Source: Ranitomeya imitator
Lineage: Eukaryota
Length of the DNA: 64,000 bases
Direction of reading: 5' to 3'
NCBI RefSeq assembly: GCF_032444005.1
Contig: NC_091282.1
Coordinates: forward strand, 184,698,001-184,762,000
Shown here in pieces: positions 6,446-62,160 of this stretch (its first letter is position 1; the number at the start of each line of letters is the position of its first letter). The notes below the pieces were generated by a model. It saw only the letters and a program-made list of their open reading frames with translations. It was not told the origin of the DNA and searched no databases. Both the position numbers and the translations under genes were made by a program.

Positions 6446-6903
6446 AATGTCAATACAATGGTATTGTCAGTGGCAGGCATTGAAGGATGTTAGCGCATAG
6501 ACTAAACATTGGTGGAGCTGTGAGATAATTTTGCAAGTGGTAGAGCACTGTTTGAGCTGGGGGGGGGAACTGTCTTGTGGCCGGCGGTACAGGCCCAGGG
6601 CCCCTCATATTACAACGATGTGTCTGACGTTGGGTGCGCACCACCACCGCCAGAGACACTTTATTGTACTAGGAGGGACCCAGTGGCAGTGCCGTCGACC
6701 AAAAGCAGGCACAACCACCTCTTCAGACAAACAGCACTCTCACGGGTGCTGTCGCCAAGTGTCGATACCACGGCCCCGTGTGGGGAGTTTGGCCATTTAG
6801 TGAGGTGTAAACATGTCGTATGCTGGACAATCAGGTGCAGAAAATTACGAGATTGGAAAAGGCATTCAGAATAGTCCACAGGCAAGACCTTTTCATAGGA
6901 AAG

Positions 6904-9900: not shown

Positions 9901-10472
9901 TTGATCATTACCCTGCGAGGGCAATGTTGTGGTCTGAGTCAAAGGACCAGCATAGTAGTCTGGCTGTGGCTGTGCATCAGTGCACTCCATGTCAGATTCA
10001 ACTTGTAATGGGCATGGACTGTTAACTGCTTCACTTTCTAAGCCAGGGACGGTATGTGTAAAGAGCTCCATGGAGTAACCCGTTGTGTCGCCTGCTGCAT
10101 TCTTCTCTGTTGTTGTTTTTGCTGAAGAGGACAAGGAAGCGACTTGTCCCTGACCGTGAACATCCACTAACGACGCGCTGCTTTGACATTTACCAGTTTC
10201 ACGAGAGGAGGCAAAAGAGCTAGAGGCTGAGTCAGCAAGATAAGCCAAAACTTGCTCTTGCTGCTCCGGCTTTAAAAGCGGTTTTCCTACTCCCAGAAAA
10301 GGGAGCGTTCGAGGCCTTGTGTAGCCAGACGACGAACCTGGCTCCACAGCTCCAGACTTAGGTGCAATATTTTTTTCCCACGACCAGCTGATGCTCCACC
10401 ACTACCACTACCCTCATTACCAGCTGACAATGAACGCCCCCGGCCACGACCACTTCCACCAGACTTCCTCAT
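6904..10472 (-). pseudogene. hAT transposase of about 1190 aa (BED finger, DDE core, C-terminal dimerisation domain) with three single-base frameshifts
   Basis: ATG at 10472 (MRKSGGSGRGRGR). BED finger VWHFF..C-x2-C..HLTTMH. Core motifs TTDAWTS, SDNGRNF, CLAHTLNL, TRWNS, LLDPRYK and CPAASVLSERVFSAAG. Joins ORFs 10287-10472, 8428-10347, 8054-8407 and 6904-8160 through shifts near 10370, 8510 and 8090. Confidence 0.92.
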
Positions 10473-10649
10473 TGTTTTAAAAACGTAAACAAACTAACGG
10501 TATTTGTTGCTGTCACACAACTTACACGGTGAGCTGTAACTTCAGTATGATTTAGCTACCCCTTTACAGGTGAGTGAGACCACAACGAAAATCAGGCACA
10601 ATGTTACACACTCTGTTGTTGGTGGCAACAAATGAGAGAGATGCCACAC

Positions 10650-13400
10650 ACGCTGGACTGTCACTGAAGCACAAATGTAAATATTAATCTCCCACTGATT
10701 TTTTTTTTTTTTTTTTTTCAGGGAGACTTTAGGAAAAAAAAATTATAGAATAAAATGATTTTTTCAGGAAGAATTTAGAAACCAAATAAAATAAAATGAT
10801 TTTTTCAGGGAGAATTTAGAAAACAAATAAAACAAAAAAAGGCTTTCTATGGCCCACTGAGTGAGAGATGACGCACACAGGAGTCAGGAGTGGCACACAA
10901 GCCCAGAGGCCAATATTTATCTCCCACTGATTGATGTAGTGATTTTTTCAGGTAGATTTTGGAACCCAAATCAAGCTAAAAAAATTATAGGCTTTCTATG
11001 GCCCACAATTGGAGAGAGAGAGAGAGAGATGGCACACCCAGGAGTCAAGACTGGCACACAAGCAGAAAGGGCAATATTAATCTCCCACTGATTTTTTTTT
11101 TTTTTTTTTTCAGGGAGACTTTAGGAAAAAAAAATAATAGAATAAAATGATTTTTTCAGGAAGAATTTAGAAACCAAATAAAATAAAATGATTTTTTCAG
11201 GGAGAATTTAGAAAACAAATAAAACAAAAAAAGGCTTTCTATGGCCCACTGAGTGAGAGATGACGCACACAGGAGTCAGGAGTGGCACACAAGCCCAGAG
11301 GCCAATATTTATCTCCCACTGATTGATGTAGTGATTTTTTCAGGTAGATTTTGGAACCCAAATCAAGCTAAAAAAATATTAGGCTTTCTATGGCCCACAA
11401 TTGGAGAGAGAGAGAGAGATGGCACACCCAGGAGTCAAGACTGGCACACAAGCAGAAAGGGCAATATTAATCTCCCACTGATTTGTTTTTTTTTTTTTTT
11501 CAGGGAGACTTTAGGAAAAAAAAATAATAGAATAAAATGATTTTTTCAGGAAGAATTTAGAAACCAAATAAAATAAAATGATTTTTTCAGGGAGAATTTA
11601 GAAAACAAATAAAACAAAAAAAGGCTTTCTATGGCCCACTGAGTGAGAGATGACGCACACAGGAGTCAGGAGTGGCACACAAGCCCAGAGGCCAATATTT
11701 ATCTCCCACTGATTGATGTAGTGATTATTTCAGGTAGAATTTAGAACCCAAATCAACCAAAAACATAAATAGGCTTTCTATGGCCCACTATTTGTGAGAG
11801 AGATGGCACGCTCAGGACTGGCACACAAGCCCAGAGGCCAATATTAATCTCCCACTTTTTATTTTTTTTCAGGGAAAATTTATAAACCCAATAAAAAAAT
11901 AATAAATAGGCTTTCTATGGCCCACTATCTGAGAGAGAGAGATGGCACGCTTAGGACTGGCACACAAGCCCAAAGGCCAATATTAATCTCCCTTTTTTTT
12001 TTCAGGGAGAATTTATAAAACAAAAAAAAATAAATAAATAGGCTTTCTATGGCCCACTATTTGTGAGAGAGATGGCACGCTCAGGACTGGCAAACAAGCC
12101 CAGAGGCCAATATTAATCTCCCACTTTTTTTTTTTGTTCCAGGGAAAATTTATAAACCCAATAAAAAAAATAATAAATAGGCTTTCTATGGCCCACTATC
12201 TGAGAGAGAGAGATGGCACGCTTAGGACTGGCACACAAGCCCAAAGGCCAATATTAATCTCCCTTTTTTTTTCAGGGAGAATTTATAAAACCAAAAAAAA
12301 AAAAATAAATAGGCTTTCTATGGCCCACTATTTGTGAGAGAGATGGCACGCTCAGGACTGGCACACAAGCCCAGAGGCCAATATTAATCTCCCACTTTTT
12401 TTTTTTTTGTTCCAGGGAAAATTTATAAACCCAATAAAAAAAAATAATAAATAGGCTTTCTATGGCCCACTATCTGAGAGAGAGAGATGGCACGCTTAGG
12501 ACTGGCACACAAGCCCAAAGGCCAATATTAATCTCCCACTGATTGATTTATTGATTTTTTCAGGTAGAATTTAGAACCCAAATAAAGCAAAAAAAAAAAA
12601 AATGGGCTTTCTATGGCCCACTGAGTGAGTGATGATGCACACAGGAGTCAGGAGTGGCACACAAGCCCTGAGGCCAATATTTTTCTCCCACTGATTGATG
12701 TAGTGATTTTTTCAGGTAGATTTTAGAACCCAAATCAAGCAAAAAAATAAATAGGCTTTCTATGGCCCACTATTTGTGAGAGAGATGGCACGCTCAGGAC
12801 TGGCACACAAGCCCAGAGGCCAATATTAATCTCCCACTTTTTTTTTTTTGTTCCAGGGAAAATTTATAAACCCAATAAAAAAAATAATAAATAGGCTTTC
12901 TATGGCCCACTATCTGAGAGAGAGAGATGGCACGCTTAGGACTGGCACACAAGCCCAAAGGCCAATATTAATCTCCCACTGATTGATTTATTGATTTTTT
13001 CAGGTTGAATTTAGAACCCAAATAAAGCAAAAAAAAAAAAAAAAATGGGCTTTCTATGGCCCACTGAGTGAGTGATGATGCACACAGGAGTCAGGAGTGG
13101 CACACAAGCCCTGAGGCCAATATTTTTCTCCCACTGATTGATGTAGTGATTTTTTCAGGTAGATTTTAGAACCCAAATCAAGCAAAAAAATAAATAGGCT
13201 TTCTATGGCCCACTGACTGAGAGATGGCACACACAGGAGTCAAGAGTGGCACACAAGCCCTGAGGCCAATATTTTTCTCCCACTGATTGATGTAGTGATT
13301 TTTTCAGGTAGATTTTATAACCCAAATCAAGCAAAAAAATAAATAGGCTTTCTATGGCCCACTGAGTGAGAGATGGCACACACAGGGATGGCACTCTAGC
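10650..13400. repeat. Complex tandem array upstream of the hAT transposase, with 120-150-bp subunits and partial ~392-bp higher-order repeats
   Basis: About 17 copies of ggctttctatggccca...atggcac...ggactggcacacaagccc..aggccaatattaatctcccact. Confidence 0.92.
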
Positions 13401-14249
13401 AGAAATGTCAATCTTAATCTCCCACAAAAAAAACAAACAAAAAAAACAGGGAGTGTCCAACAATTACTATCTCCCTGCAGTAATCTCAGCCAGGTATGGC
13501 AGGCAGCAATAAGGAGTGGACTGATGCACAAATTAAATAAAAAGTGTGGACAAACAAACAAGATAGCTGTGCAGAAAGGAAGGAACAAGAGGATTTGTGC
13601 TTTGAAAAAAGCAGTTGGTTTGCACAGCGGCGTACACACAGCAATGCAGCTATCAGGGAGCCTTCTAGGGCAGCCCAATGAGCTACAGCGCTGAGGGGAA
13701 AAAAAAAATGTAGCTTCCACTGTCCCTGCACACCGAAGGTGGTGTTGGGCAGTGGAAATCGCTACAGCACAAGCGGTTTGGTGGTTAACCCCTTAGTGAC
13801 AGAGCCAATTTGGTACTTAATGACCGAGCCAATTTTTGCAATTCTGACCACTGTCACTTTATGAGGTTATAACTCTGGAACGCTTCAACGGATCCCGCTG
13901 ATTCTGAGATTGTTTTTTCGTGACATATTGTACTTCATGTTAGTGGTAACATTTCTTCGATATTACTTGCGATTATTTATGAAAAAAACGGAAATATGGC
14001 GAAAATTTTTAAAATTTTGCAATTTTCAAACTTTGTATTTTTATGCCCTTAAATCAGAGAGATATGTCACGAAAAATAGTTAATAAATAACATTTCCCAC
14101 ATGTCTACTTTACATCAGCACAATTTTGGAAACAAAATTTTTTTTTGTTAGGGAGTTATAAGGGTTAAAAGTTGACCAGCAATTTCTCATTTTTACAACA
14201 CCATTTTTTTTTAGGGACCACATCACATTTGAAGTCATTTTGAGGGGTC

Positions 14250-16600
14250 TATATGATAGAAAATAATGAAGTGTGACACCATTCTAAAAACTACACCCCT
14301 CAAGGTTCTCAAAACCACATTCAAGAAGTTTATTAACCCTTTACGTGCTTCACAGGAACTGAAACAATGTGGAAGGAAAAAATGAACATTTAACTTTTTT
14401 TTGCAAACATCTTAATTCAGAACCATTTTTTTTATTTTCACAAGTGTAAAAACAGAAATGTAACCATAAATTTTGTTATGCAATTTCTCCTGAATACTCC
14501 AATACCCCATATGTGGGGGTAAACCACTGGTAGGGCGCACCGCAGAACTTAGAAGTGAAGGAGCGCCGTTTTACTTTTTCAATGTTGAATTGGCTGGAAT
14601 TGAGATTGGATGCCATGTCGCGTTTGGAGAGCCCCTGATGTGCCTAAACAGTGGAAACCCCCCACAAGTGACACCATTTTGGAAACTAGACCCCTTAAGG
14701 AACTTATCTAGATGTGTGGTGAGCACTTTGAACCCCCAAGTGCTTCACAGAAGTTTATAACGTAGAGCCGTGAAAATAAAAAAATCGCTTTTGTTTACAC
14801 AAAAATGATCTTTTTGCCCACAAATTCTTATTTTCACAAGGGTAACAGGAGAAATTAGACCACAAAAGTTGTTGTGCGATTTCTCCTGAATACGTCGATA
14901 CCCCATATGTGAGGGTAAACCACTGTTTGGGCGCACCGCAGAGCTTGGAAGTGAAGGAGCGCCGTTTTACTTTTTCAATGTAGAATTGGCTGGAATTGAG
15001 ATTGGACGCCATGTCGCGTTTGGAGAGCCCCTGATGTGCCTAAACAGTGGAAACCCCCCACAAGTGACACCATTTTGGAAACTAGACCCCTTAAGGAACT
15101 TATCTAGATGTGTGGCGAGCACTTTGAACCCCCATGTGCTTCACAGAAGTTTATAACGTAGAGCCGTGAAAAAAAAAAAAATCGCATTTTTTCTACAAAA
15201 ATGATCTTTTTGCCCACAAATTTTTATTTTCACAAGGGTAACAGGAGAAATTAGACCACAAAAGTTGTTGTGCAATTTCTCCTGAGTACGCTGATACCCA
15301 ATATGTGGGGGTAAACCACTGTTAGGGCGCACCGCAGAGCTTGGAAGAGAAGGAGTGCCGTTTTACTTTTTCAATGTAGAATTGGCTGGAATTGAGATCG
15401 GACGCCATGTCGCGTTTGGAGAGCCCCTGATGTGCCTAAACAGTAGAAATCCCCCACAAGTGACCCCATTTTGGAAACTAGACCCCCCATGGAACTTATC
15501 TAGATGTGTGGTGAGAACCTTGAATGCCCAAGTGCTTCACAGAAGTTTATAATGCAGAGCCGTGAAAATAAAAAATATTTTTTTTTTCCACAAAAAAGAT
15601 ATTGTAGCCCCCAAGTTTTTATTTTTACAAGGGTAACAAGAGAAATTGGACCCCAAAAGTTGTTGTCCAATTTGTCTTGAGTATGCTGGTACCCCATATG
15701 TGGGGGTAAACCACTGTTTGGGCGCACGGCAGAGCTCGGAAGGAAGGAGCGCCGTTTTGGAATGCAGACTTTGATAGAATGGTCTGCGGGTATTATGTTG
15801 CATTTGCAGAGCCCCTGATGTACCTAACCAGTAGAAACCCTCCACAAGTGACCCCATTTTGGAAACTAGACCCCCAAGGAACTTATCTAGATGTGTGGTG
15901 AGAACTTTGAATGCCCAAGTGCTTCACAGAAGTTTAGAATGCAGAGTCGTGAAAATAAAAAATATTTTTTTTTCACAAAAAAGATTTTGTAGCCCCCAAG
16001 TTTTTATTTTCACAAGGGTAACAGGAGAAATTGGACTGCAATAGTTGTTGTCCAATTTATCCCGAGTACGCTGATGTGCCATATGTGGGGGTAAACCACT
16101 GTTTGGGCGCACGGCAGAGCTCGGAAGGGAAGGAGCGCCTTTTTGGAATGCAGACTTTGATAGAATGGTCTGTGGGCATTATGTTGCGATTGCAGAGCCC
16201 CTGATATACCTAAACTGTAGTAACCCCCCACAAGTGACCCCATTTTGGAAACTAGACCCCCCAAGGAACTTATCTAGATGTGTGGTGAGAACTTTGAATG
16301 CCCAAGTGCTTCACAGAAGTTTAGAATGCAGAGTCGTGAAAATAAAAAATATTTTTTTTTTCACAAAAAAGATTTTGTAGCCCCCAAGTTTTTATTTTCA
16401 CAAGGGTAACAAGAGAAATTGGACCCCAGAAGTTGTTGTCCAATTTATCCCGAGTACATTGATGCCCCATATGTGGGGGTAACCCACTGTTTGGGCGCAC
16501 GGCAGAGCTCAGAAGGGAGGGAGCACCATTTGACTTTTTGAGCGCAAAATTGGCTGTCGTGTTTGGAGACCCCCTGATGTACCTAAACAGTGGAAACCCC
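14250..16600. repeat. ~392-bp satellite-like tandem repeat (about 6 units) inside the piggyBac-like element
   Basis: ggaaactagacccc recurs at about 14681, 15076, 15472, 15861 and 16248. Confidence 0.9.
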
Positions 16601-34402: not shown

Positions 34403-37400
34403 ATGAGTGGCAAAAGGCCAGCTGCTGGTGGAAAGGAGAATAGGTGTGTTGGAAAGGGAAAAAAAGGTTGTGTCCATGGGGTAGGTGGTAAAGCAACAGT
34501 AACATCTGCAGAAGAAAAACCATCTTCCAGCCAAAGTAAGATGTCTACTTCTTTTCGTGGACAATCTGTTATGATCCCTTTCTTACGAGCATCGCTACGA
34601 GCATCGCCAAAAATTCCAGATGAGGCACAAAAACAGCAGGTGCTTGAACGGATATCAAGTGCTCGTTCAAGTGGGCTCTCCTCCATGTCAACTTCAACAT
34701 CACAACTACTCCAGTCCTCAGAGTTGTCACCCTAATCGCACTTGCTTCCTCACAGCTCCCAAGTCTCCTGCCGCCCGTCTGAGTATGAGGTAACACAGAT
34801 GGTTGAGTCTGTAGAGCTGTTTACTCATACTATAGCCTGGGAATCAGAGGTCTGCTCCAGAGCTTCTGTGAATCCAAATGAGGAAATGATCTGCACTGAT
34901 GCCCAGAATCTTTGTGAGTAGGATCCAGGCCCAGATGAAGAAGGTTCTGAGCATAATGTAGACCCTCGTTCCCAAACTGTAACTCCTGTTGGTGGAGACA
35001 ATGAGGAAGATGATGATGAGACTGAGATACCTGATTGGAATGAAAACTTTACTTTTCGGTCAGGGCAGGAAGAGGTTGGCTCTGAGGACGATGGGTGTGA
35101 GAACACACAGGATGATGATGACGAGGTTGGAGACCCCACTTACTGTCAACCCACAGTCCGCCAGTCCATGAGGTCAGCAGAGGAGGTGGAAGAGGATGTT
35201 AGTGATGAGTCTGACGACGAGGTTAGGTTGCGCCTTCCTGGACAGAGACGGAGTACTGGAAGCACGTCAACAACTGCATCCTCAACCCCAACTGTGCCTC
35301 TGAGCAGAAGTCGTGGTGGCTCTTCAAGTCGCACGGGATCTAAGCCTTGCATAGCTTGGGCATTTTTTGACATCACAAAGGATGACCCAACTCATGTTGT
35401 CTGTAAGATTTGTCACCAAAATCTCAGTAGAGGCCAAAAAATGACTAGCTTGAGTACTTCATGCATGAACCGTCACATGGATATGAGGCATAAGTTGCAG
35501 TGGGAAGCTCACTGTGCTACAATGCGGCCTAGTGGGCTGGGTCAACCACAGTCTGCCCCATCAAGTGCATCCACGTCCTCTTCATCCTCTGTGACTGTGG
35601 GGACAGCAGTCGCACATGGTTTTGGACGCAGACCTTCCACCTCTTTACCTGCAACAGCCAGTGTGATTGGGAGGTCGTCAGGACATTTGCAAGTGGAAAC
35701 ACCTGCTGGTGCTGAGCGCTCTCCAATACCGAGACCACATTTTGATCAAAGCAACATAACATCTCCGCCTGCACCTTCCTCACAGACCAGCAGTTTGCCG
35801 TGGACACCCTACTCAACTTCATCTAAGCACGGCAGCTAGTCCTCAGTCCCTCAGATGTGGACAAGTAAAAGACCATTTCCTCCTAGCCATGACAAAGCTA
35901 AGAGGTTGAATTTCACCATCTGCAAGCTGTTGGCTACAAAAATGCTGCCTTTCCGCCTGGTGGACACAGAGGAATTTCAAGACCTTATGTCCGTCGCAGT
36001 GCCCCAGTACCAGATGCCCAGTCACCACTACTTCTCAAAGAAAGCTGTGCCTGCGCTACACCAGCATGTCGCCCACAACATCACCGCTTCCTTGAGAAAC
36101 TCTGTGTGTGACAGGGTGCATTTCACCACAGACACTTGGACGAGTAGACATGGACAGGGGCGTTACATGTCGGTGACTGGGCACTGGGTAACTATGGTGA
36201 CATCAGGAGAAGGGGCTGCTGTCCAAGTCTTGCCGTCCCCACAAGTTGCTCATCGATCCTATGTATCTAGAAGTTCCTCCACTGCTTCTGCCTCCTCAAC
36301 CTCCTCTAGGTCCTCCACCTGCACCCAAAGCCTGTGTGGTAATGCCACCCGCGTTCCAATTGCGCAGAAGGAATCCTACACACCTCCTTACCATGCTGTC
36401 ACCCGGGCTCAACAGCATCAGGCGGTGTTTACATTGAAATGTCTGGGAAATGTAAGTCACACAGCTGAGGAGTTGTGGTCAGCTCTGGAGACCGGGTTCC
36501 ATCAATGGTTGTCTCCACTCAACCTGCAGCCAGGGAAGGCCAAGTGCGACAATGCTGCAAACCTGGGTGCGTCCCTTCGCCGGGGCAATGTCACACACGT
36601 GCCTTGTATGGCTCACGTTTTGAACCTGGTTGTCCAGAAATTTTTATCCAACTATCCCGGACTAGATGGGCTTCTGCAGAAGGCACGGTCGCTGTGTGCT
36701 CACTTCCACCATTCGCATCCCGCAGCTCAACGACTTAAATCTCTACAGAAGTCGTTGGGCCTGCCAGTTCACCGGCTGAAATGCGATGTGCCCACATGGT
36801 GGAATTCAACTCTGCACATGTTGCAGCGACTGTCGCAGCACCGACGGGCCGTGGTGCAATACGTTATGACGTATAGCCTGGGCCAACGAGATCCAGAGGT
36901 GGGACAAATCACGCTGCAGGAGTTGTCTCAGATCAGGGACCTATGCACCCTTTTGCACAGTTTTGAAATAGCGACGAAGATGTTTAGTGCTGACGATGCC
37001 ATTATCAGCATGACTATTCTGGTTATTTACATGCTGGAGCACACCTTAAACAGTATTTGGAGTCAGGTGGTGGAACAAGAGGAGGAGTAACAGGAGGAGT
37101 CGTATGCAGAAGGGATAATATCTCCAAGGTCCACACAATCGGCAGCACCAAGGCGGCTGGCATTGGAGGCTGGGGGAGAGGGATTACCGAGGGCGCATGG
37201 TAGCAGCCAAACTGTTGAGGAAGGTGCAGGAGGCGAAGAAGAAGTGGAGGATAAACTGGCGCTGGGCATGGAAGACTTATCAGATGAGGGAGACCTTGAT
37301 CAAATTTCTGTTGTGCGAGGTTGGAGGGAGAGGGCAGAGGAAGGAAGCATGATTCTCACCTCGCCGCCACCAAGGCAACAAGGATGAGTGCCTCCTTGCT

Positions 37401-40273: not shown

Positions 40274-41880
40274 CAGTGGGGCAAAAAAGTATTTAGTCAG
40301 TCAGCAATAGTGCAAGTTCCACCACTTAAAAAGATGAGAGGCGTCTGTAATTTACATCATAGGTAGACCTCAACTATGGGAGACAAACTGAGAAAAAAAA
40401 AATCCAGAAAATCACATTGTCTGTTTTTTTAACATTTTATTTGCATATTATGGTGGAAAATAAGTATTTGGTCAGAAACAAAATTTCATCTCAATACTTT
40501 GTAATATATCCTTTGTTGGCAATGACAGAGGTCAAACGTTTTCTGTAAGTCTTCACAAGGTTGCCACACACTGTTGTTGGTATGTTGGCCCATTCCTCCA
40601 TGCAGATCTCCTCTAGAGCAGTGATGTTTTTGGCTTTTCGCTTGGCAACACGGACTTTCAACTCCCTCCAAAGGTTTTCTATAGGGTTGAGATCTGGAGA
40701 CTGGCTAGGCCACTCCAGGAACTTGAAATGCTTCTTACGAAGCCAATCCTTCGTTGCCCTGGCGGTGTGCTTTGCATCATTGTCATGTTGAAAGACCCAG
40801 CCACGTTTCATCTTCAATGCCCTTGCTGACGGAAGGAGGTTTGCACTCAAAATCTCACGATACATGGCCCCATTCATTCTTTCATGTACCCGGATCAGTC
40901 GTCCTGGCCCCTTTGCAGAGAAACAGCCCCAAAGAATGATGTTTCCACCACCATGCTTTACAGTAGGTATGGTGTTTGATGGATGCAACTCAGTATTCTT
41001 TTTCCTCCAAACACGACAAGTTGTGTTTCTACTAAACAGTTCCAGTTTGGTTTCATCAGACCATAGGACATTCTCCCAAAACTCCTCTGGATCATCCAAA
41101 TGCTCTCTAGCAAACTTCAGACGCGCCCGGACATGTACTGGCTTAAGCAGTGGGACACGTCTGGCACTGCAGGATCTGAGTCCATGGTGGCGTAGTGTGT
41201 TACTTATGGTAGGCCTTGTTACACTGGTCCCAGCTGTCTGCAGTTCGTTCACTAGGTCCCCCCGCGTGGTTCTGGGATGTTTGCTCACCGTTCTTGTGAT
41301 CATTCTGATCCCACGGGGTGGGATGTTGCGTGGAGCCCCAGATCGAGGGAGATTATCAGTGGTCTTGTATGTGTTCCATTTTCTAATTATTGCTCCCACT
41401 GTTGATTTCTTCACTCCAAGCTGGTTGGCTATTGCAGATTCAGTCTTCCCAGCCTGGTGCAGGGCTACAATTTTGTTTCTGGTGTCCTTTGACAGCTCTT
41501 TGGTCTTCACCATAGTGGAGTTTGGAGTCAGACTGTTTGAGGGTGTGCACAGGTGTCTTTTTATACTGATAACAAGTTTAAACAGGTGCCATTACTACAG
41601 GTAATGAGTGGAGGAAAGAGGAGACTCTTAAAGAAGAAGTTACAGGTCTGTGAGAGCCAGAAATCTTGATTGTTTGTTTCTAACCAAATACTTATTTTCC
41701 ACCATAATATGCAAAAAAAATGATAAAAAACCAGACAATGTGATTTTCTGGATTTTTTTTTCTCAGTTTGTCTCCCATAGTTGAGGTCTACCTATGATGT
41801 AAATTACAGACGCCTCTCATCTTTTTAAGTGGTGGAACTTGCACTATTGCTGACTGACTAAATACTTTTTTGCCCCACTG
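40274..41880 (-). mobile_element. Full-length Tc1 transposon (1607 bp) with ~200-bp IR/DR-type TIRs
   Basis: TA|CAGTGGGGC...GCCCCACTG|TA; near-identical long TIRs with inner (aataagtatttggt) and outer (aaaagtatttagt) direct repeats. Confidence 0.96.
40491..41513 (-). CDS. Intact Tc1 DD34E transposase (340 aa)
   Basis: Paired-like HTH N-terminus, GAPR linker, WSDETK, HDND-x-SPDLNPIE with exactly 34 residues between D and E; no stops. Confidence 0.95.
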
Positions 41881-45492: not shown

Positions 45493-46939
45493 TAAAAGTC
45501 AGGTAGCACTCCTTTCCATCCAAGCTCTGTAGTGAGCCAAAACAGTAGTTTTCTCCAAACGTGAAGCTTCAGTGTACTCAGAAGAAATTGAACAACAAAC
45601 TGGTGGCCCATTTTCTGCTGTCATCCTTGTGAAAATGAAAACTTTAGAGCTAAAACAACATTTTTGTGAAATTTTTTACATAATTTTTTTCCACTTTGTT
45701 ATTATTCTTGTGAAGCATCGGAAGGGTTAACAAACTTCCTGAATGCAGTTTTGAATACTGTGAGGGGTGCTGTTTTTACAGTGGGGTCTTGTTTGAGGGT
45801 TTTCTGACAGATAGGATCCTCAAAGTCACTTCAAAGGTGAAATCTTTAAAAAAATAGGATTTGTAAATTTCCTTAGAAATATGAAAAATTACTGCTAAAC
45901 TTTTAACCCTTCTAACTTCCTAACAAAAAAAAATGTTTAAAAAAGGATGCTGACTTGTGATGAGCGAATATACTCGTTGCTCGAGTTTTCCTGAGCACAC
46001 TCGGGTGGTCTCTCAATATTTGTAACTGCTTGGAGATTAGGTTTTCATCACCTCAGCAGCATGATTTGCGGCTATTAGACAGATTGAACACATGTGGGTA
46101 TTCCCTAGCAACCAGGCAACCTGTTATGATACGGTGGTCTAGGAGCAACATGGAATGAGCTCTGAAGGAAATGGTAACTGTACTGACCGCAGTCCCTAAG
46201 CTCAACACAACACTAGAAGTAGCCGTGGAATGCTCCTAACTCTCCCTAGGCATCTCGTCACAGCCTAATAGCTAACTTCTCCTAAAGATAGAAGCAGGAA
46301 AGCTATCTTGCCTCAGAGAAAATCCCCAAAGGATAGATTAGCCCCCCCACAAATAATGACTGTGAGTGGAGAGGGAAAAGACATACACAGAATGAAACCA
46401 GGATGAGCACAAGAGGCCAGTCTAACTAAATAGATAGGACAGGATGGAATACTGTGCGGTCAGTATCAAACACTACAAAAATCCACGCAAAGTTTACAAA
46501 AAAATCTCCACACCTGACTAAAGGTGTGGAGGGCAAATCTGCCTCCCAGAGCTTCCAGCAAGACAGAATTAATTCACACTGATAAGCTGGACAAACATAG
46601 AAAGCACAGAATGGATAAGTCCACAATCTATGAACAGAAAAGGGCAAGCAAAAACTTAGCTTAGCTGAACTGGTCAGGATAACAGGGAACTCCAAAGAGA
46701 TGTGAATCCAACCAGGAACCATTTACAAGTGGCACAGGCTGAAGATAGAGCCAGACTTAAATTGCCGAGCAGAAGAGACGATAAGTGGAGGCAGCTGATG
46801 ACAGCTAAGTCCAAGGAGCAGCCATAACACTAGAAACCTCAAGAGGGAGCCCAAGAGCAGAACTCACAAAAGTGCCACTTACAACCACCGGAGGGAGCCC
46901 AAGAGCGGGATTCACAACAGTACCCCCCCCCTTGAGGAG

Positions 46940-49900
46940 GGGTCACCGAACCCTCACCAGAGCCCCCAGGCCGATCAGGACGAGCCAAGTGAAAACCACG
47001 AACCAAATCGGTGGCATGGACATCGGAGGCAACAACCCAAGAATTATCCTCCTGGCCATAACCCTTCCACTTGGCAAGATATTGAAGCCTCCGCCTCGAA
47101 AAACGAGAATCCAAAATCTTTTCAACCTCATATTCCAACTCTCCCTCAACCAACACCGGGGCAGGAGGGTCAACCGAGGGAACAACGGGCACCACAAATC
47201 TCGGCAACAAAGATCAATGGAAAACATTATGAATGGCAAAAGAGGCGGGAAGAGCCAAACGAAAAGACACCAGATTAATAATTTCAGAAATTTTATAAGG
47301 ACCAATAAATCGAGGCTTAAACTTAGGAGAAGAAACCTTCATAGGAACATGACGAGAAGACAACCAAACCAAATCCCCCACACGAAGCCAGGGACCAACA
47401 CACCGACGGCGGTTGGCAAAACGTTGAGCCCTTTCCTGAGACAACGTCAAATTGTCCACCACATGAGTCCAAATCTGCTGCAGCATGTCCACCACAGAAT
47501 CAACACCAGGACAATCAGAAGGCTCAACCTACCCAGAAAAAAAACGAGGATGAAAACCAAAATTACAAAAGAAAGGTGAAACCAAAGTAGCCGAACTAGC
47601 CCGATTATTAAGGGCAAACTCGGCCAACGGCAAGAAAGACACCCAATCATCCTGATCAGCAGACACAAAGCATCTCAAATAGGTCTCCAAGGTCTGATTA
47701 GTTCGCTCAGTTTGGCCATTAGTCTGAGGATGAAACGCCGAAGAAAAAGACAAATCAATGCCCATCCTAGCACAAAAGGCCCGCCAAAATCTAGAGACAA
47801 ACTGAGAACCTCTGTCAGACACAATATTCTCTGGAATGCCATGCAAACGAACCACATGCTGAAAAAAAAATGGAACCAGATCTGAGGAGGAAGGCAACTT
47901 AGGCAAAGGTACCAGATGGACCATTTTAGAGAACCGGTCACAAACAACCCAGATAACAGACATCTTCTGGGAAACAGGAAGATCCGAAATAAAATCCATG
48001 GAAATATGCATCCAGGGCCTCTCAGGGACCAGCAAAGGCAAAAGCAACCCACTAGTGTGGGAACAGCAAGGCTTGGCCCGGGCGCAAGTCCCACAGGACT
48101 GCACAAAAGCACGCACATCGCGCGACAAGGAAGGCCACCAAAAGGACCTGGCATCCAAATCTCTGGTACCAAAAATCCCAGGATGCCCAGCCAACACTGA
48201 ACAATGAACCTCAGAAATTACCTTACTTGTCCATCTATCAGGAACAAACAGCTTCCCCACTGGACAGCGGTCAGGCCTATCAGCCTGAAATTCCTGAAGC
48301 ACCCACCACAAATCAGGGGAGATAGCAGAAAGAATCACCCCCTCCTTAAGAATGCCAACCGGCTCAAGGACTCCAGGAGAATCAGGCGAAAAACTCCTAG
48401 AGAGGGCATCAGCCTTAACATTCTTAGATCCCGGAAAATACGAGACCACAAAATCAAAACGGGAGAAAAACAGGGACCATCGAGCCTGTCTAGGATTCAG
48501 CCGCTTGGCCGACTCGAGGTAAATCAGATTCTTATGATCGGTCAGGACCACAACACGGTGTTTAGCTCCCTCAAGCCAATGTCGCCACTCCTCAAACGCC
48601 CACTTCATAGCCAACAACTCCCGATTGCCGACATCATAATTGCGTTCCGCAGGCGAAAACTTTCTGGAAAAACAAGCACACGGTTTCATCAAAGAACCAT
48701 CAGACTCCCTCTGAGACAAAACGGCCCCTGCCCCAATCTCAGAAGCGTCGACCTCAACCTGAAAAGGAAGAGAAACATCCGGTTGATGCAACACAGGGGC
48801 AGAAGTAAATTGGCGTTTAAGCTCCTGAAAGGCCTCAACAGCCTCAGAGGACCAATTCATCACATCAGCGCCTTTCTTCGTCAAATCAGTAAGGGGCTTA
48901 ACCACACTGGAAAAGTTGGCAATGAAACGGCGATAGAAATTAGCAAAACCCAAAAATTTTTGAAGACCCTTCACAGATGTGGGTTGGATCCAGTCATGAA
49001 TAGCTTGGACCTTAACAGGATCCATTTCTATAGACGAGGGAGAAAAAAATAAAACCCAAAAAAGAGACCTTCTGAACTCCGAATAGGCACTTAGACCCCT
49101 TCACAAATAAAGCATTATCATGAAGGATCTGGAACACCATCCTGACCTGCTTCACATGAGACTCCCAATCATCGGAAAAAATCAAAATATCATCCAAATA
49201 TACGACCATGAATTTATCAAGATAATTGCGGAAAATATCATGCATGAAAGACTGAAACACAGATGGAGCATTAGAGAGCCCAAATGGCATCACAAGGTAT
49301 TCAAAATGGCCTTCGGGCGTATTAAATGCAGTTTTCCATTCGTCACCCTGTTTAATACGAACAAGATTATATGCCCCTCGGAGGTCAATCTTAGTAAACC
49401 AACTAGCCCCCTTAATCTGAGCAAACAAATTAGTAAGCAAAGGCAAGGGGTATTGGAATTTGACCGTGATCTTATTAAGAAGACGATAATCAATACAAGG
49501 TCTCAAGGAGCCATCCTTCTTAGCAACAAAAAAGAAACCCGCTCCCAATGGTGACGAAGAGGGCCGAATATGCCCTTTCTCCAAAGATTCCTTAACATAG
49601 CTCCGCATGGCTGCATGCTCTGGCACAGACAGATTGAAAAGTCGGCCCTTAGGGAACTTACAACCAGGAATCAAGTTAATAGCACAATCACAGTCCCTGT
49701 GCGGAGGAAGGGAACTGGACTTGGGCTCATCAAATACATCCTGGAAATCCGACAAAAACTCAGGGACCTCAGAAGAGGGGGAAGAGGAAATTGACATCAA
49801 AGGAACGTCACTATGTACTCCTCGACAACCCCAACTAGTCACTGACATAGTTTTCCAATCCAGCACCGGATTATGTTCCTGTAACCATGGAAATCCCAGT

Positions 49901-51102
49901 ACAACAACATCATGCAGGTTAGGGGAACACTAGAAAACGGCAATCTTCCTGATGTGCAGGAGCCATGTACATAGTCATCTGTGTCCAGTACTGAGGTTTA
50001 TCCTTGGCCAAGGGTGTAGCATCAATGCCCCTCAAAGGAATAGGGCTCTGCAAAGGCTGCAAGGAAAAACCACAGCGCCTGGCGAATTCTAAGTCCATTA
50101 AGTTCAGGGCAGCGCCTGAATCCTCAAATGCCATGACAGAAAAGGACGACAATGAGCAAATCAGGGTCACAGATAAGAGAAATTTAGGCTGTATAGTACT
50201 AATGGTAACAGACCTAGAGACTCTCTTAGTACGCTTAGGGCAATCAGAGATAACATGAGCCGAATCACCACAGTAAAAACACAGCCTATTCTGACGTCTG
50301 AATTCCTGCCGTTCTATTCTAGTCAAAATCCTATCACATTGCATAGGTTCAGGAATTTGCTCAGAGGATACTGCCATATGGTGCACAGCTTTGCGCTCGC
50401 GCAGACGCCGATCAATCTGAATGGCTAGAAACATAGATTCGCTCAAACCGGCAGGCGTAGGAAAGCCCACCATAACATCTTTAAGGTTTTCAGAAAGACC
50501 TTTTCTGAAAATAGCAGCCAGAGCCTCTTCATTCCATTTAGTGAGCACAGACCATTTTCTAAATTTCTGGCAGTATAACTCTGCCGCTTCCTGACCTTGA
50601 CACAAGGCCAACAGTGTTTTTTCTGCATGAGCCACAGAATTAGGTTCGTCATACAATAATCCGAGCGCTTGAAAAAATGCATCTACATTCAATAATGCCG
50701 GATCCCCTGTTTCAAGAGAAAAAGCCCAGTCTTGAGGGTCACCACGCAGCAAGGATATGATGATTTTTACTTGCTGAATGGGATCACCAGAAGAACGAGG
50801 TTTCAATAGCAAAAAACAATTTGCAGTTATTTTTAAAGTTCAAAAACTTGCATCTGTCCCCAAAAAAACAAATCAGGAGTAGGAATTCTGGGCTCTAAAG
50901 CCGGAGTCTGGACAACATAGTCCTGGATACACTGTACTCTTGCAGCAAGTTGATCCACACGAGAAAACAAACCCTGAACATCCATGCCAAAGCACATATC
51001 CTGAACCACCCAGATATCAAGAGGAAAAAAAAAAAAAGACAAACTAGAGCACAGAAAAAAAAATGGTTCAGAACCTTCTTTTCCTTCTTTTGAGAGATGC
51101 AT
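46940..51102 (-). pseudogene. Gypsy gag-pol with frameshifts and a premature stop
   Basis: Gag CFYCGDSAHVISDCP knuckle; PR DSGA; [10 protein letters not shown] and YLDDILIFS; RH DASEIG and TDHKNL; IN HISMDF, SDRGSQF and GQTERTN; chromodomain YEVEKILDSR..YLAKWKGYGQEDNSW. Confidence 0.93.
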
Positions 51103-51762
51103 TTAATTCATTTTTGGCCACTTGTACTGTTAAGATACGGTGGTCTAGGAGCAACATGGAATGAGCTCTGAACGAAGTGGTAACTGTACTGACCGCAGTC
51201 CCTAAGCTCAACACAACACTAGAAGTAGCCGTGGAATGCTCCTAACTCTCCCTAGGCATCTCGTCACAGCCTAAGAGCTAACTACCCCTAAAGATAGAAT
51301 CACGAAAGCTATCTTGCCTCAGAGAAAATCCCCAAAGGATAGATTAGCCCCCCCACAAATAATGACTGTGAGTGGAGAGGGAAAAGACATACACAGAATG
51401 AAACCAGGATGAGCACAGGAGGCCAGTCTAACTAAATAGATAGGACAGGATGGAATACTGTGCGGTCAGTATCAAACACTACAAAAATCTACGCAAAGAT
51501 TACAAAAAAATCTCCACACCTGACTAAAGGTGTGGAGGGCAAATCTGCCTCCCAGAGCTTCCAGCAAGACAGAATTAATTCACACTGATAAGCTGGACAA
51601 ACATAGAAAGCACAGAATGGATAAGTCCACAATCTATGGACAGAAAAGGGCAAGCAAAAACTTAGCTTAGCTGAACTGGTCAGGATAACAGGGAACTCCA
51701 AAGAGATGTGAATCCAACCAGGAACCATTTACAAGTGGCACAGGCTGAAGATAGAGCCAGAC

Positions 51763-51769
51763 TTAAATA
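51763..51769 (-). promoter_or_regulatory. Putative TATA box (TATTTAA) of the Gypsy 5' LTR
   Basis: Lies 30 nt upstream of the 10-nt LTR segment complementary to the PBS (51730-51739). Confidence 0.6.
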
Positions 51770-52472
51770 GCCGAGCAGAAGAGACGATAAGTGGAGGCAG
51801 CTGATGACAGTTAACTCCAAGGAGCAGCCATACCACTAGAAACTACAAGAGGGAGCCCAAGAGCAGAACTCACAAAAGTGCCACTTACAACCACCGGAGG
51901 GAGCCCAAGAGCGGAATTCACAACAGCAACCCCCACATGTACTCAGCCTGGCTAATAGCTGTAAATCATTCAGCTGCCGTGATGAAAACTAAATCTCTGA
52001 ACAATAACAAATACTCGGAGACCACCCGAGTGTGTTCGGGAAAACCCGAGCAACGAGTACACTCGCTCATCTCTAATGCTGACATAAAGTAGACCTGTGT
52101 AAAATGTTATTTCATTATTTTGTGTGGTATAACTGATTTGAGGGCATAAGAATTCAAAGTTTAAAATTAAGAATTTTTCAAAGATCTAGTCAAATTGTCT
52201 ATATTTTCAAATTTTTAAATCATATTGTATGATCCATTGAAGTGTTCCACAGTTTTTACCACATAAAGTGACGGTGGTCAGAATCGAAACATTTGGCCTG
52301 ATAGGAAAGTGAAAACAGGCTTCGGTTGAAGGGGTTAAAAAATATTATTTCAGTAAGGCAGCCATTTTATTGCAATGCTATTTACCTATAGATTGATCCT
52401 ATATCTGCAGATAAATAGCATTTTCCAAAATGACAGGTTCCCTTTAATCCAAACCTTTATTACTTATTTGCC

Positions 52473-53244
52473 TGTTATGATCAGGTGACCTTGGAGCAGC
52501 ATGAAAACTTTCACTGGAGTAGGTGGTAACTATACTGACCGCAAATCCTGATCTTAACACCGCAACTAGAAGTAGCCGTGGGGTGTGCCTAACAAATCCT
52601 AGACACCTCGACACAGCCGGAGGACTAAATACCCCTATAGATGGAAATAGGAATTCTACCTTGCCTCAGAGCAGAACCCCAAAGGATAGGCAGCCCCCCC
52701 ACAAATATTGACTGTGAATAGTAGAGGAAAAGACACACGCAGGCAGGAAACAGGATTTAGCAAAAGAGGCCACTCTAGCTAAAATAGGAAAGGATAGGAC
52801 AGGATACTAAGCGGTCAGTATTAAAATCCTTCCAAAAATATCCACAGCAGAAAATACAAAAACTCCACCATCTTACTAAAGATGTGTAGCGTATATCTGC
52901 AACTCCAGAGAATTCAACAAGACTGAGAAAACACTGACACAGTCTAAGCTGGACAAGAGAAAACAAATGAATAGCACAGAATATAAGCACACAGCTTGTG
53001 TGCCACAGAAAAAGAAACAGACACTTATCTTTGCTGAATTGGCAGCTAAGCAGGAGAAGCCAGACAAAGATCCAACACTTCCCAAGAAACATTGACAACT
53101 GGCAAGGACCAATGAGTCCAGCAAACCTAAATACCCCAGTCAGAATTGCAATCAGTAGATACACCTGTCCAAGACTGCAGCCCAGGAACAACTGCATTAC
53201 CACCCACAACCACCGGAGGGAGCCCAAAAGCAGAATTCACAACA
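52473..53244 (-). mobile_element. Solo LTR (772 bp) of a sister subfamily of the Gypsy element
   Basis: Ends tgttatgat...gaattcacaaca are shared with the Gypsy LTR; flanked by TTTGCC at 52467-52472 and 53245-53250. Confidence 0.9.
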
Positions 53245-56200
53245 TTTGCCCATTCATTAGACTGTATGCTATAATTTAAACCAACAGTTCAGCATTTTTT
53301 TTTATTTCAGCATGGTGCCACTAACCCAAGTTCCCTGACTTTAGTATTATACTTCAGCCCCTGTGCCGCCATCTTGTGACCCCAACTTCTGACTGATCGG
53401 AAGTCAGAGGTAAAGGTCACAAGTTCTCAATGCAAGTCTACGAGATCCTCGTTCTGGCCTCGTTTTGGCTCTGATTGACTTACAATACATTTAGTTGAAG
53501 CATTTCTCCAGCGGGTTTTTCTTATTTTAGTTCTGGATTGGTACAACTAATGAAAGTGCCCTGCCCCTAGCAACATACGGTACTTCCATCCATTGTCCTG
53601 TGACTGCAATTTCTGAATGACCAGAAGTTAGAGATAACGGTCACGAGCTCTCAATGCAACAAGTATAAATTTGCCCTCAGCACTCATCGAGGACACATTA
53701 GGAAACCGGATCATCATACTCACAGGAGGAGGCAGCATCGAGGACTCCAAGGAGCTCACTGGGAAAAAATTGCTGCAAACTAAGTGAAAGAACGTGTCCA
53801 AGCTTGGGTCAAGCAAATACATTTTCTTTTATTGCGCGCCAAATACAGTGCAATGTTTCGACCACATACAAGTCATGCTTGACAAAGATATGTATCTGGT
53901 CACAACATTGCACTCTATTTGTAGCGGAATAAAAGATTCATTTAATTCACCCAAACTTGGACATTGTCTTTCACTTAGTTTAAAGTACTCAATGTAAATC
54001 TATGAGAGCATGGTTCTGGCCTCGTTCTGCCTCTCATAGACTTACATTGAGAAGTAATCCCCGGCTCGCCCAGCTAACACCAGACTGATCCAGCAGGTCA
54101 CAATCTGCATGAGGGGACTGTTTTGGCACCAATAACAGATGAATACAGTGAAAGTTACAGCTGAACCGCGCATAAAGGGACCAAAGGGGCTGGACAGAAC
54201 CACCCAAGGTGCGGATAGGGCCGTAGCTGTGATGTCACACGCTGAGTCTTCTGTCGGCCATCTTCCCCCTGCTCGTATCCAGGGACGCCACCGGCCGGGG
54301 CATTCCCTGGCTCTACGTAGCGTCCACACAGCGATTCTGTGCCCGCTCCCCTGCAGGTTCGCCTGCGCGTTCAGCCCTTTCTCGCCTTAGGGCTTCCCGG
54401 TACAGCGCCCACGTGCATCCATTCATTGATCCTCCTCTCGGTGCAGCTCAGCGCCGCAGCCCCTCCAGGTTTGCTGGCCGGCACGGTATTCTATCCACGA
54501 GGTTCTGGGCTTCTCACCGTAGAACTACATGTTTGCCCATTCTGCTGCCGCTGCGGCATCCATGTTCCGGTAAGTCCGCCAGCTCCACATTTATATGTTC
54601 CCATTTTATATTTTTACATTTACCATCCTATACTTTATATCTGGTAAGGGGCCGACTGTACTATCAGTGTAGGTATTTAGTCATTCCTGCACAGCTGTCC
54701 TGGTTCCATTTTTGCGGCCCTATCCGCACCTTGGGTGGTTCTGTCCAGCCCCTAGTAGCCCTCTGGATATTAGTTTTAGTGGCTGTACTAGTGTTTGCTT
54801 ATTTGCTTTATTCATTTTTTATGTGGTTTTGGTCCCTTTATGCGCGGTTCAGCTGTAACTTTCATTGTGCATACTTCTATAGCAGGATTGGCACTTACCT
54901 GCCCTGACTCCAGCTGCTAGGGACCTTGGGGTTTGATATTAGCGCTTGTGTGTTTCCTTCTTCTAGATGAATACAGTGTCTGGTAAGCATAAGACTGGGG
55001 GTAGGGACCTTACATTGGTGACACCATTTTAGTGGAAAAATATAAAAAAGTGGTGCTTTAGGACTGAGATTACGTGTATCATGAAAAGTGAAAAGGCTCT
55101 TAATTTCTAAAACTAAACTTTAAAGGTAGAAAAACATTCTTGCAAATTTATTTTGTAAAAAATAATAGTCTTCCAAAAGGAAAAGATAGTATAATTAAGG
55201 CAAATGGCAGATACAAAAAGTACTGAAAAATGGTATTATGCCTAAAAGGGTTGTCTGAGAATGAGATAAAATGGTGTCCCTGGTATAATTCAAACTGCAG
55301 CCTGTCTTAGTCACATACAGACTGAAGATATGTAGTTCCCAAGACCCGTGTGTCAAGTGACAAGAGCTGTATCACACATATACCTCAGTCAGGCTGTCAT
55401 ATGTGAAGAAATATAAATCTTTGTTTTCAGAGGCATAGCTAGGGGTTTTGGTTCAGGGGGAGACGAATCTTCTGAGCGGGCCCCAACCAGGTAACCCTGA
55501 TTACAACTATGGTGGCACACCCTAATAGTGGAGGTGGGAGAACCTTAGCAGATGACTCGGCCGTTACTGAAAATATTCTCTATACATAGACCAACACTGA
55601 TATTACCGCCACAAGGTGACATATAGTGGTAGATACCAGTCCTGCAGAACATATAAGAGATTACAGTACAGTTATTGATGGTGACTTACAACTTATGTTC
55701 TTTCTGATGGAATCGTTCACTTTTCCCGTCTTTTCCATCAGGTCCAGACCAGCATGACAAATTCTCCCAGCCCAGACTCGTCTACAGAGATTAAGACACA
55801 TTTGACTTCTCACATTTCTAGAACAGCCCCATCTATTCCCAACCCGCACAAATGCCTCATCCTGCTGATATTCCAATACTGATCCACTACTATTACTATT
55901 ACTGCTACTGTACTGTGTGCACTCTAGATAGTAAAACAAACCTCTTGAATATATTAATGCCCTGTGCAAGTGCCCTAGAAAACAGTGCCCACATTTTTCT
56001 TCTTAGAAAGTAATAATGCCCTCTGTCTGCCAATTTGACAGTCACAATAAACGGAGTCTCCCTATAGTAATAAGTGTCCACTTTTCATTTAATAATGTCC
56101 CGAGTCTCCCCCATGATCAGCTCTCCTCTACACAGGATGATGCTCTCTTATACACAGTATAATGCCCCCTCACAGTATAGTACCCCACACACAGTATACT

Positions 56201-56339
56201 GACCCCTTAGTAGCCCCTAAACTTTTTGATGGCCCCAACAATGTATGATGGCCCTCACATTGTAAAAAGACCCCATATTAGCCCCCCCCCACTGTATTTT
56301 GACCCCCTTGCTGTAATTCCCACACTGCATGATGGTCCA

Positions 56340-57100
56340 CTAAATAGCCTCCATATAGTATAATGCACCACATATTTCTCCATATAGTATACTGCACTCC
56401 TCATATGCCTTTATATAGTATAATGACCTCCCACTAGTCCTTCATATAGTATAATGCACTCCCCATAGGCTTCTATATAGTATAATGAACTCCCCATACC
56501 CCCATATAGTATAATGCACTTCCCATAGGTCTCTATATAGTAAAATGTACTCGTTATAGGCCTCCATATAGTATAATCCACATAGGCTTCCATATAGTAT
56601 AGTATAATGCACTGTCCATAGGCCTCTCTATAGTATAATGCACTCTCCATAGGCCTCTATACAATATAATGCACTCCTCATAGGTCTCTATATATAGTGT
56701 AATGCACTCTGCATTGCCCGCTATATAGTAAACTGCATTCCCCATAGGCCTCCATATAGTATAATGCACCCCCATAGGCCTCAATTTAGTATAATACACT
56801 CCCCATAAACCTCCATATAGTATAATGCACTCTCCATATGCCTATATATAATATAATGCACTCCCCATATGCCTCTATATAGTATAATGAAGTCCCCATA
56901 GGACACCATATACTAAATGAACTGTCCATAGTCCTTCATATAGTCTAATGCACTCCCCATAGTCCTTTATATAGTATAATGCACTCTCCATAGACCTCAA
57001 TTTAGTATAAGGCACTCCCCATGGGCCTCTATATAGTATAATGCACAACCATAAACCTCGATATAACGTAATGCACTCCCCATATACCTCCATAGAGTAT
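56340..57100. repeat. ~30-bp minisatellite, probably inside a hAT-type MITE starting near 55428
   Basis: ccatatagtataatgcactccccataggcct repeated; cagaggcatagctagg at 55428 resembles a hAT end, but no matching right end or TSD was confirmed. Confidence 0.85.
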
Positions 57101-58099
57101 AAAAAAATACAATACTCACCTCTCCTCTGAGCACCCGCACGTCTCAGGACTGCGGACGCCAAGTAATGACATCATCGCACCCACTGACAGTGTCTGTGTC
57201 AGTGACGTCAGATGCAAAGGGGAAATGATGACAGAGAGAACGTGACTTTTCCTCTCTCATCACTGCTGGCACCACCCCGCTCATGGACCCCATAGTGGTT
57301 GGGTGGCGGTCTCCCTGCTCTGCCACAGAGTAGCACAGACATGCTCCTCATTATAGAGACAGAGAGAAAGAGACAGACTATTTGTGCTTCGGGGTGGACC
57401 TGTGAGCAGGTTTCTTCTTGGTTTCTCTGGCCTACAGCACCAAGGTAAGCCTCTGCCTTCAGTCCCGCCCCGAGCATGAGCATCTCATTAGCTGAAAACT
57501 TCACTGATTACACAAGAACCACTGAGACGCGAGTCACGACAGTATATATGTACACTACGTACTGTAAGTAAAGGGAGGTCAAACAATCTGAGGTCAGGTC
57601 CAGGAAATGGCGCAGTACGACAAAGGGAAGTCAGAGCCAATGTCCAATACATGAGATTAGGTCAGGAAAGCCAGAGAGACAAGAGAGATTACAGGGAGCA
57701 GGTACAAGCAAAGTCAGGTCACAAGTAAAGGGTCTGAGTCCGGATAGAGAATCAAGTCAAGCTGGGTCAGGCACAGAGCACAGAGGGATCAATTTTCCCC
57801 AGGCAACAGCAAGTGTACAATTGACACTGGGGTGAGAAACTAGCATGCTTAAGTAGCAGCCTGATTAAGGAAAATGAACACAGATGATTGCAGCACAGAC
57901 CCAGCACAGACTGACAGCACTGACACAAAGTAACAAAAAGACAGAAACAGAGTGGAAATCTTGATAACCACAAGATGGATTTCTTCACCCCAGGTATCAT
58001 TTTAATCAGTGTAACAGTGCCAACCTGACAATGCTTGTAGTTTACTTAGCAAAGTCCTGCTGACAGGTTCCCTTTAAAGATTACACATTTCCTTTGTAT

Positions 58100-61067: not shown

Positions 61068-62120
61068 TATATAATTGTCTAAGGGTCACTTCCATCTGTC
61101 TGTCTGTCTTTCTGTCACGGTTATTCATTCGCTGATTGGTCTTGGCAGCTGCCTGTCATGGCTGCCGCGACCAATCAGCGACGGGCACAGTCCGGAAGAA
61201 AATGGCCGCTCCTTACTCCCCGCAGTCAGTGCCTGTCGCCCGCATACTCCCCTCCGGTCACCGCTAACACAGGGTTAATGCCGGCGGTAACCGACCACGT
61301 TATGCCGCGGGTAACGCACTCCGTTACCGCCACTATTAACTCTGTGTGTCCCCAACTTTTTACTATTGACGCTGCCTATGCGGCATCAATAGTAAAAAAT
61401 GTAATGTTAAAAATAATTTTAAAAAAATAAACCTGCTATACTCACCCTCCGTAGTCCGCTGAGGCGCTCCCGCCGGCCGCCATCTTCCGCTGCAGTTTCC
61501 AGTGGCAAAGATGGTATGGCAGAAGGACCTGCCATGACATCACGGTCATGTGACCGCGATGTCATCACAGGCCCTGCGCGCTTGCGCTAGAAAGAACTGC
61601 CATGACGTCACGGTCATGTGACCGCGACATCATCACAGGTCCTGTGCTCTGATACCAACCCTGGGACCGCAAGCTGCCATGGACTACAAGGGGCCTTTGG
61701 AAAGGTGAGTATATGTTTATTTTTTATTTTTTCACCTGTGACAAACCTGACTGGGCAATATACTACGTAACTGAGCAATATACTACGTGGCTGGGCAATA
61801 TACTACGTCACTAGGCAATATACTACGTGTCTGTGCAATATACTACGTGACTGGGCAATATAGTATGTAACTGGCCAATATACTACGTGGCTGTGCAATA
61901 TACTACGTCACTAGGCAATATACTACGTCACTGGGCAATATACTACGTGTCTGGGCAACATACTAAGTGGCTGGGCAATATACTATGTGGTTGGGCAATA
62001 TACTACGTGGCTGTGCAATATACTACGTGGCTGGGCAATATACTACGTGGCTGGGCAATATACTACGTGGACATGCATACTCTAGAATACTCGATGCGTT
62101 AGAATCGGGCAACCATCTAG
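61066..62120 (+). mobile_element. Non-autonomous Helitron-like element with an internal 20-bp minisatellite
   Basis: 3' hairpin ctcga-tgcgttagaa-tcggg (62090-62109), then CTAG (62117-62120) followed by T; no TSD; inserted in (TA)n; gcaatatactacgtggctgg repeats at about 61750-62070. Confidence 0.7.
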
Positions 62121-62160
62121 TATATATATACATATATACTGTATATTATATATATATATA

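Follow-up and report, generated by a model that had tools for sequence, protein, structure and literature searches.

Organisation of the element

The stretch of Ranitomeya imitator DNA analysed here, referred to as the window, is 64 kb long and carries on its minus strand a broken, 5.8-kb copy of a Ty3/gypsy chromovirus (Table 1). The two LTRs are 97.6% identical, with 19 differences and no gaps (K2P 0.024), and between them lie gag, protease, reverse transcriptase (RT), RNase H and integrase in that order, the Pfam match of the protease being weak. This domain order, together with a polypurine tract and a flanking direct repeat, identifies the element as a Ty3/gypsy LTR retrotransposon. A chromodomain follows the integrase (PF00385 Chromo, E 8.2e-12, 45 bits against a cut-off of 25), and by this C-terminal domain the element is a chromovirus.

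Table 1. Features of the window (positions are those of the 64-kb stretch).
Feature	Position	Strand	Remarks
5' LTR	51128..51925	-	798 nt, TG...CA
3' LTR	46122..46919	-	798 nt, TG...CA; second copy of the primer sequence at 46733-46724
Predicted primer-binding site TACAAGTGGC	51117..51126	-	one G (51127) between LTR CA (51128) and site; no TGG start
Predicted self-primer GCCACTTGTA, the predicted RNA 5' end (9 or 10 nt used)	51730..51739	-	exact complement of 51126-51117
TATA-like box TATTTAA	51763..51769	-	begins 30 nt before 51739
U3 site pairing with the primer region	51878..51890	-	13 bp (2 G-U); 3' LTR copy at 46884-46872
gag, in frame into a protease-like region	49922..50985	-	Pfam; Retrotrans_gag and CCHC knuckle (weak); start codon inferred
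Reverse transcriptase	49015..49929	-	RVT_1, E 7e-38; YLDD present; frame differs from both adjoining pieces
RNase H, integrase zinc finger and core	47529..49100	-	RT_RNaseH, Integrase_H2C2, rve; stop codon at end
Integrase tail, SH3_Tf2-1 and chromodomain	46934..47528	-	Pfam, translation; stop near 47215 between the two
Polypurine tract	46923..46933	-	sequence; AA and 9 G, then TAC, then 3' LTR
Left flanking direct repeat GGTTGC	51926..51931	-	6-nt target-site duplication if LTR ends at CA
Right flanking direct repeat GGTTGC	46116..46121	-	sequence
Solo LTR of a related family	52473..53244	-	GGCAAA flanks both sides; 70% identity to element LTR
Palindromic MITE-like repeat, abundant	45959..52071		arms 45959-46098 and 51932-52071, 81% complementary
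Other mobile elements	6904-10401 (-), 34922-37090 (+), 40491-41591 (-), 892-2697 (+)		Pfam
Tandem arrays, many	3747-4814, 4969-6491, 10600-16556, 56337-57102, 61685-62124		periods 128, 243, about 390-396, 31 and 20 nt

The reading frame of gag is broken near 50836-50839, with further frame breaks near 49925 and 49050, and stop codons interrupt the integrase part near 47530 and 47215. Because of these frame breaks and stops the window copy is non-autonomous, being unable to supply its own enzymes.

The element has inserted near the centre of the MITE-like palindrome and splits it. Both LTR insertions in the window, the full element and the solo LTR (repeats at 53245-53250 and 52467-52472), have 6-nt direct repeats outside TG...CA, and both repeats start with GG. 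These can equally be read as 5-nt duplications around an LTR that ends in CAG, and two insertions do not decide between the readings. The terminal inverted repeat reaches 4 nt beyond TG/CA, as GTAC-TGTT at the polypurine-tract end (46920-46923) and AACA-GTAC at the binding-site end (51124-51127). The other mobile elements of the window include a hAT transposase in two frames (zf-BED, hAT dimerisation), a second zf-BED open reading frame, a Tc1/Sleeping Beauty-like transposase open reading frame of 366 amino acids, and a weak RT match.

The closest RT and gag proteins are from R. imitator itself (up to 99% identity over part of the length), followed by those of other amphibians and of fish at ∼50–65%. 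An RT tree of 37 stretches places the window in a group with Ranitomeya, Pristimantis and Phyllobates (100/98), and in it 21 amphibian, fish and vertebrate-type rows, the window among them, are split (99/95) from 15 fungal and plant-type rows; one long branch, L066, is unplaced. The tree holds no named sushi-ichi, Amn-san, V-clade or Tf1 reference, so the name vertebrate Tf1/sushi rests on the chromodomain and on the vertebrate kin, and it is in this sense, as an assignment made without a named reference sequence, that the element likely belongs to that branch. Contigs from four runs, aligned to the window, indicate a family that is very abundant and variable, abundance here referring to depth and not to copy number.

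The predicted priming site and its partner in the LTR

The first-pass annotation of this locus described a vertebrate chromovirus with a primer-binding site at 51126-51117, 1 nt from the 5' LTR, an exact complement of that site at 51739-51730 within the LTR, and a spacing of 30 nt between this partner and a TATTTAA box (51769-51763). All of these statements agree with what we find. The LTR ends in CA at 51128 and a single G precedes the site; the complement is exact and above chance level in shuffles; the box and the partner lie at the distance described; and Pfam places both Chromo and SH3_Tf2-1 after the integrase.

The complementarity extends over exactly 10 nt and no further, with a duplex energy of -15.0 kcal/mol, and the predicted primer begins at a T|G pyrimidine-purine step. 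The sequence GCCACTTGTA recurs at the corresponding position of the 3' LTR, where the box reads AATTTAA as against TATTTAA in the 5' LTR. Among 20,000 dinucleotide shuffles of the LTR, a complement of at least 10 nt was found in 73 (rate 0.0037, with the word allowed to start 0–3 nt after the LTR), and within the element 4,143 internal positions were compared with the real LTR, none of which reaches 10 nt. A tRNA gene search of the 64-kb window found none, an Rfam search gave no match, and a PDB search with the gag-protease part yielded nothing informative.

Two other arrangements were considered. A second TATTTA, at 51438, was set aside as a candidate box because most aligned contigs differ at 51435, and a primer assembled across a splice junction is not needed since the LTR partner is contiguous. 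No splice-type joint was present in the leader among the joints listed for the contigs of the four runs.

The solo LTR of the related family preserves the same arrangement. Here a variant of the primer site, GCCAGTTGTC, lies at 53103, the same 30 nt from a TATTTAG at 53133. Relative to the element LTR, the TATTTA, the 30-nt spacing and 8 of the 10 primer letters are kept, whereas the spacer has diverged. Full-length members of this family are predicted to carry a correspondingly changed binding site, the complement of GCCAGTTGT(C), after the CA.

Pairing is kept with different letters among relatives

Two scans with an RT alignment yielded 81 loci, 2 from viral contigs and 79 from metagenome sequence (the best 80 matches in 4 of 64 parts); a scan of the viral contigs with the single window RT as query gave no match. 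No LTR pair accompanies 54 of these loci, and 27 have a direct repeat around the RT, of which 18 leave the LTR end unfixed. In the other nine the repeat pair placed the end of the LTR at CA ahead of all pairing tests, and with the window copy added these relatives make up the ten elements compared here.

The complement found in the element's own LTR is 10 nt long in the window and 9, 10, 11, 9, 9, 12, 10, 8 and 8 nt in the relatives. It is thus at least 9 nt in 8 of the 10 elements, compared with 0 of 90 non-cognate pairs. Matches of 8 nt, the length to which the own-LTR match of L068 and L079 is limited, occur in 5 of the 90 non-cognate pairs, two of them following from the fact that L068 and L079 share a site. 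Over the first nine letters of the site the relatives share only 0–4 with the window. Since the letters of the site change while the pairing with the element's own LTR stays, the comparison adds support to self-priming of the Tf1 type.

These counts bear directly on whether the 10-nt match in the window might be coincidental, or the by-product of a local duplication. Matches of 9–11 nt are common if any CA in several kilobases is allowed as a starting point, and a similar word in U3 indicates that the family does contain a repeated motif. The LTR ends, however, were fixed before pairing was assessed, and with the ends so fixed neither the difference between own and mismatched LTRs nor the low rate in shuffles would be expected by chance. 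The controls largely refute this explanation, which we regard as exceedingly improbable. Scanning every CA in several kilobases was dropped as a test because it gives so many chance matches of this length, and a number of tidy loci that had been chosen by pairing (L001, L005, L012, L013, L030, L038, L040 and L046) were left out of the counts.

For five further loci the LTR ends were guessed by an inverted-repeat rule. They show matches of only 5–6 nt and were not counted; the rule is taken to have failed, visibly so for L005, in which the end it chose is not the end seen by eye. In this fish-type locus (891-900, 1130-1139) the 5' LTR apparently ends in TA rather than CA, and a 10-nt self-match that starts with GCCA, like that of the window, lies ∼30 nt after TATTTATA.

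A second explanation is that priming at this site, or close to it, falls to a small RNA such as a host tRNA or a tRNA half, and that the LTR match serves only in RNA folding or packaging. No TGG occurs within 6 nt of the LTR CA in the window; the first, at offset 7, could be cited in favour of such a primer, as could the half-tRNA priming reported for other LTR groups (PMC6317226). A tRNA 3' end, on the other hand, needs TGG at the start of the site, and this is absent in 10 of 10 elements; moreover the letters are specific to each family and are matched each time by the family's own LTR, which one host primer cannot explain. Priming by a host RNA is therefore very improbable.

The surroundings of the LTR partner resemble those of a transcript start. 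In 8 of the 10 elements a pyrimidine-purine step marks the start of the partner (background 0.23). A TATA-like word lies 27–35 nt upstream of it in 5 (background 0.027), and the other 5 lack a strict word of this kind at that distance. The ten rows are not independent and the patterns are general consensus sequences, so that nominal p values overstate the significance. Three of the nine relatives, L003, L006 and L007, are placed among fish proteins in the RT tree, and the fungal or plant-type relatives L002, L049, L051 and L052 also show the own-LTR pairing signature. Vertebrate-type and fungal-type relatives alike have matches of 9–12 nt in the same layout.

A model for self-priming

We conclude that the element family very probably used the 5' end of its own RNA to prime reverse transcription, in the manner of Tf1, and self-priming of this type, which the earlier annotation had put forward, is the best reading of the locus, backed by a pairing that is kept with different letters and by its promoter-like context. 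Direct observation covers the complementarity and its persistence with changed letters, the promoter-like surroundings, and enzyme domains that include an RNase H recognised by Pfam; the course of the reaction would be as follows. RNA polymerase II would start at about 51739, 30 nt after the TATTTAA box, and the first 9–10 nt of the RNA would fold over ∼600 nt of R-U5 on to 51126/51125-51117, the complementarity itself being evident in the DNA. By analogy with Tf1, the RNase H of the element would then cut just 3' of the duplex and free a 3'-OH, from which the reverse transcriptase would extend into U5 and R.

A primer of 9 nt is slightly favoured over one of 10 nt. The match starts 2 nt after the CA in 6 of the 10 elements, so the tenth pair of the window may be incidental. 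A 9-nt primer would also leave CA-GT at the DNA end, mirroring the AC-TG at the polypurine-tract end.

Predicted folding of the leader depends strongly on its length. The primer helix has a pair probability of 0.87–1.0 for RNA truncated at 51100 or 51085, but only ∼0.2 at 51060 and 0.01–0.02 when the RNA is extended to the gag start or beyond. Forcing the helix in these longer leaders costs 1.8–4.8 kcal/mol (3.8–4.8 kcal/mol at the gag start or beyond). The relatives behave unevenly, with L051 and L052 keeping the primer helix, L002 and L049 losing it as length increases, and L005 never forming it; in the window and the relatives alike, whole-leader folding shifts with the chosen RNA end. As to the flanking helices of the kind found in Tf1, a 5-bp helix appears beside the primer in one constrained fold, and partners for the flanks of the site are weak or scattered.

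Other features were seen in the leader and the LTRs. Upstream of 50985, the likely start of gag, there are eight ATGs. An acceptor-like pyrimidine tract followed by CAG is common to both LTR families (about 51370-51390 and about 52716-52735), and no conserved splice donor was found for it.

The presence of GCCACTTGTA in both LTRs raises the question of which copy would act as primer. The copy in the 3' LTR (46733-46724), supplied from the opposite end of the molecule or by a second packaged RNA, could in principle replace the capped 5' end. A search for 13 poly(A) hexamer variants found none on the element strand of either LTR family (51128-51925, 46122-46919 and 52473-53244; A content 17%), a negative result that fits such a primer. 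Several observations argue against it. In the window, the solo LTR and several relatives the match has a sharp beginning at a pyrimidine-purine step, with a TATA-like word ∼30 nt upstream, which is what one expects of a transcript start. Three fish-type relatives have AATAAA or ATTAAA 53–87 nt before the LTR end, and in these the signal lies more than 250 nt downstream of the partner. The 3' copy is, in addition, predicted to be tied up by the site in U3 (pair probability 0.57–1.0). We consider a primer from the 3' LTR quite improbable and retain the capped 5' end as the predicted primer.

The U3 site itself is to be viewed with caution. Its pairing with the primer region is matched in 2–4 of 1,000 shuffles, a figure that applies to a word picked after the fact. 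The word lies inside the first of two tandem units of ∼47 nt, of which the solo LTR has one, and a site complementary to the primer is absent from U3 in the solo LTR and in 7 of 7 relatives. It is predicted to mask the 3' copy of the primer, but may be a chance occurrence. One may imagine a layer of control beyond that of Tf1, in which this U3 'anti-primer' (46884-46872), present only at the 3' end of the RNA, would pair over 13 bp with the second primer copy, so that only the capped 5' copy would reach the site; an RNA end formed without a poly(A) hexamer and target-site duplications of 6 rather than 5 nt would complete the picture. We think this unlikely.

Comparison with known systems

Several accounts, which cite Butler et al. 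2001 and Lin and Levin 1997, describe self-priming as something that the Tf1/sushi elements of fungi and vertebrates have in common (bioRxiv 10.1101/2022.12.06.519325; PMC6317226; PMC4600332). The earlier annotation was thus right to name S. pombe Tf1 and the proposal for the vertebrate Tf1/sushi group as precedents, self-priming being in print for the group according to these sources. Its further claim, that the spacing gives unusually clean evidence in this family, is not supported. The vertebrate-type and fungal-type relatives are equally clean and the feature is already in print, so the signature in the window is not unusual; it is the one expected for the Tf1/sushi group.

In the literature covered, proof of self-priming comes from fission yeast, and vertebrate elements are the subject of predictions only; a literature search, with subscription papers mostly outside its scope, found no experimental test in a vertebrate element. 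Against this background, an abundant frog family now offers an exact base for the predicted capped RNA start, and the vertebrate prediction becomes cheap to test by RNA-end mapping. Chromoviruses of the vertebrate Amn-san type are reported to be the commonest LTR elements in Xenopus (PMC4131045), and Gypsy elements to amount to ∼1 Gb in a poison frog (PMC6278860). Should the prediction be true, control by tRNA 3' fragments would not extend to a repeat class that is among the largest in these genomes.

A close parallel to the proposed mechanism is that of Tf1 and Tf2 of Schizosaccharomyces pombe (also Tj1, Tosmo1-3 and Tcry1), in which the RNA 5' end pairs with a site after the LTR, as predicted from sequence for the window element, and the integrase likewise has a chromodomain. 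The Tf1 duplex is 11 bases long, its primer is released by an RNase H cut between bases 11 and 12 (PMC7175516), and a pretzel of three helices is needed (bioRxiv 10.1101/2022.12.06.519325). Apart from the fact that Tf1 is proven by experiment whereas self-priming of the window element is predicted, the two differ in primer length (11 nt compared with 9–10 nt) and in the position of the site, which in Tf1 is apparently right at the LTR flank (PMC11042837) and in the window begins after a gap of 1–2 nt following the CA. The gag of the fission-yeast elements lacks the CCHC knuckle that is present in the window gag. Members from outside fission yeast are reported mostly to use a -1 frameshift (bioRxiv 10.1101/2022.12.06.519325), unlike the window copy, in which gag runs in frame into the protease-like region.

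With the vertebrate Tf1/sushi elements the window element shares the chromodomain after the integrase, the CCHC gag, the lack of a tRNA-type (TGG) start to the site, and post-LTR bases complementary to its own LTR. Its TG...CA LTR is close to the end motifs given for Sushi (PMC3601003), but it has no AATAAA near the LTR end, a signal that is clear in the Sushi LTRs described in the same source. It differs from its fish-type relatives in the length of R-U5, which is 612 nt in the window element compared with 316–415 nt in the latter. Finally, the plant Tcn1-clade and fungal chromoviruses (Tcn1, MAGGY, skippy and kin) have been predicted to self-prime from the same signature (PMC6317226), although chromoviruses of the Tcn1 clade and of fungi fall on the other side of the 99/95 split in the RT tree from the window element.
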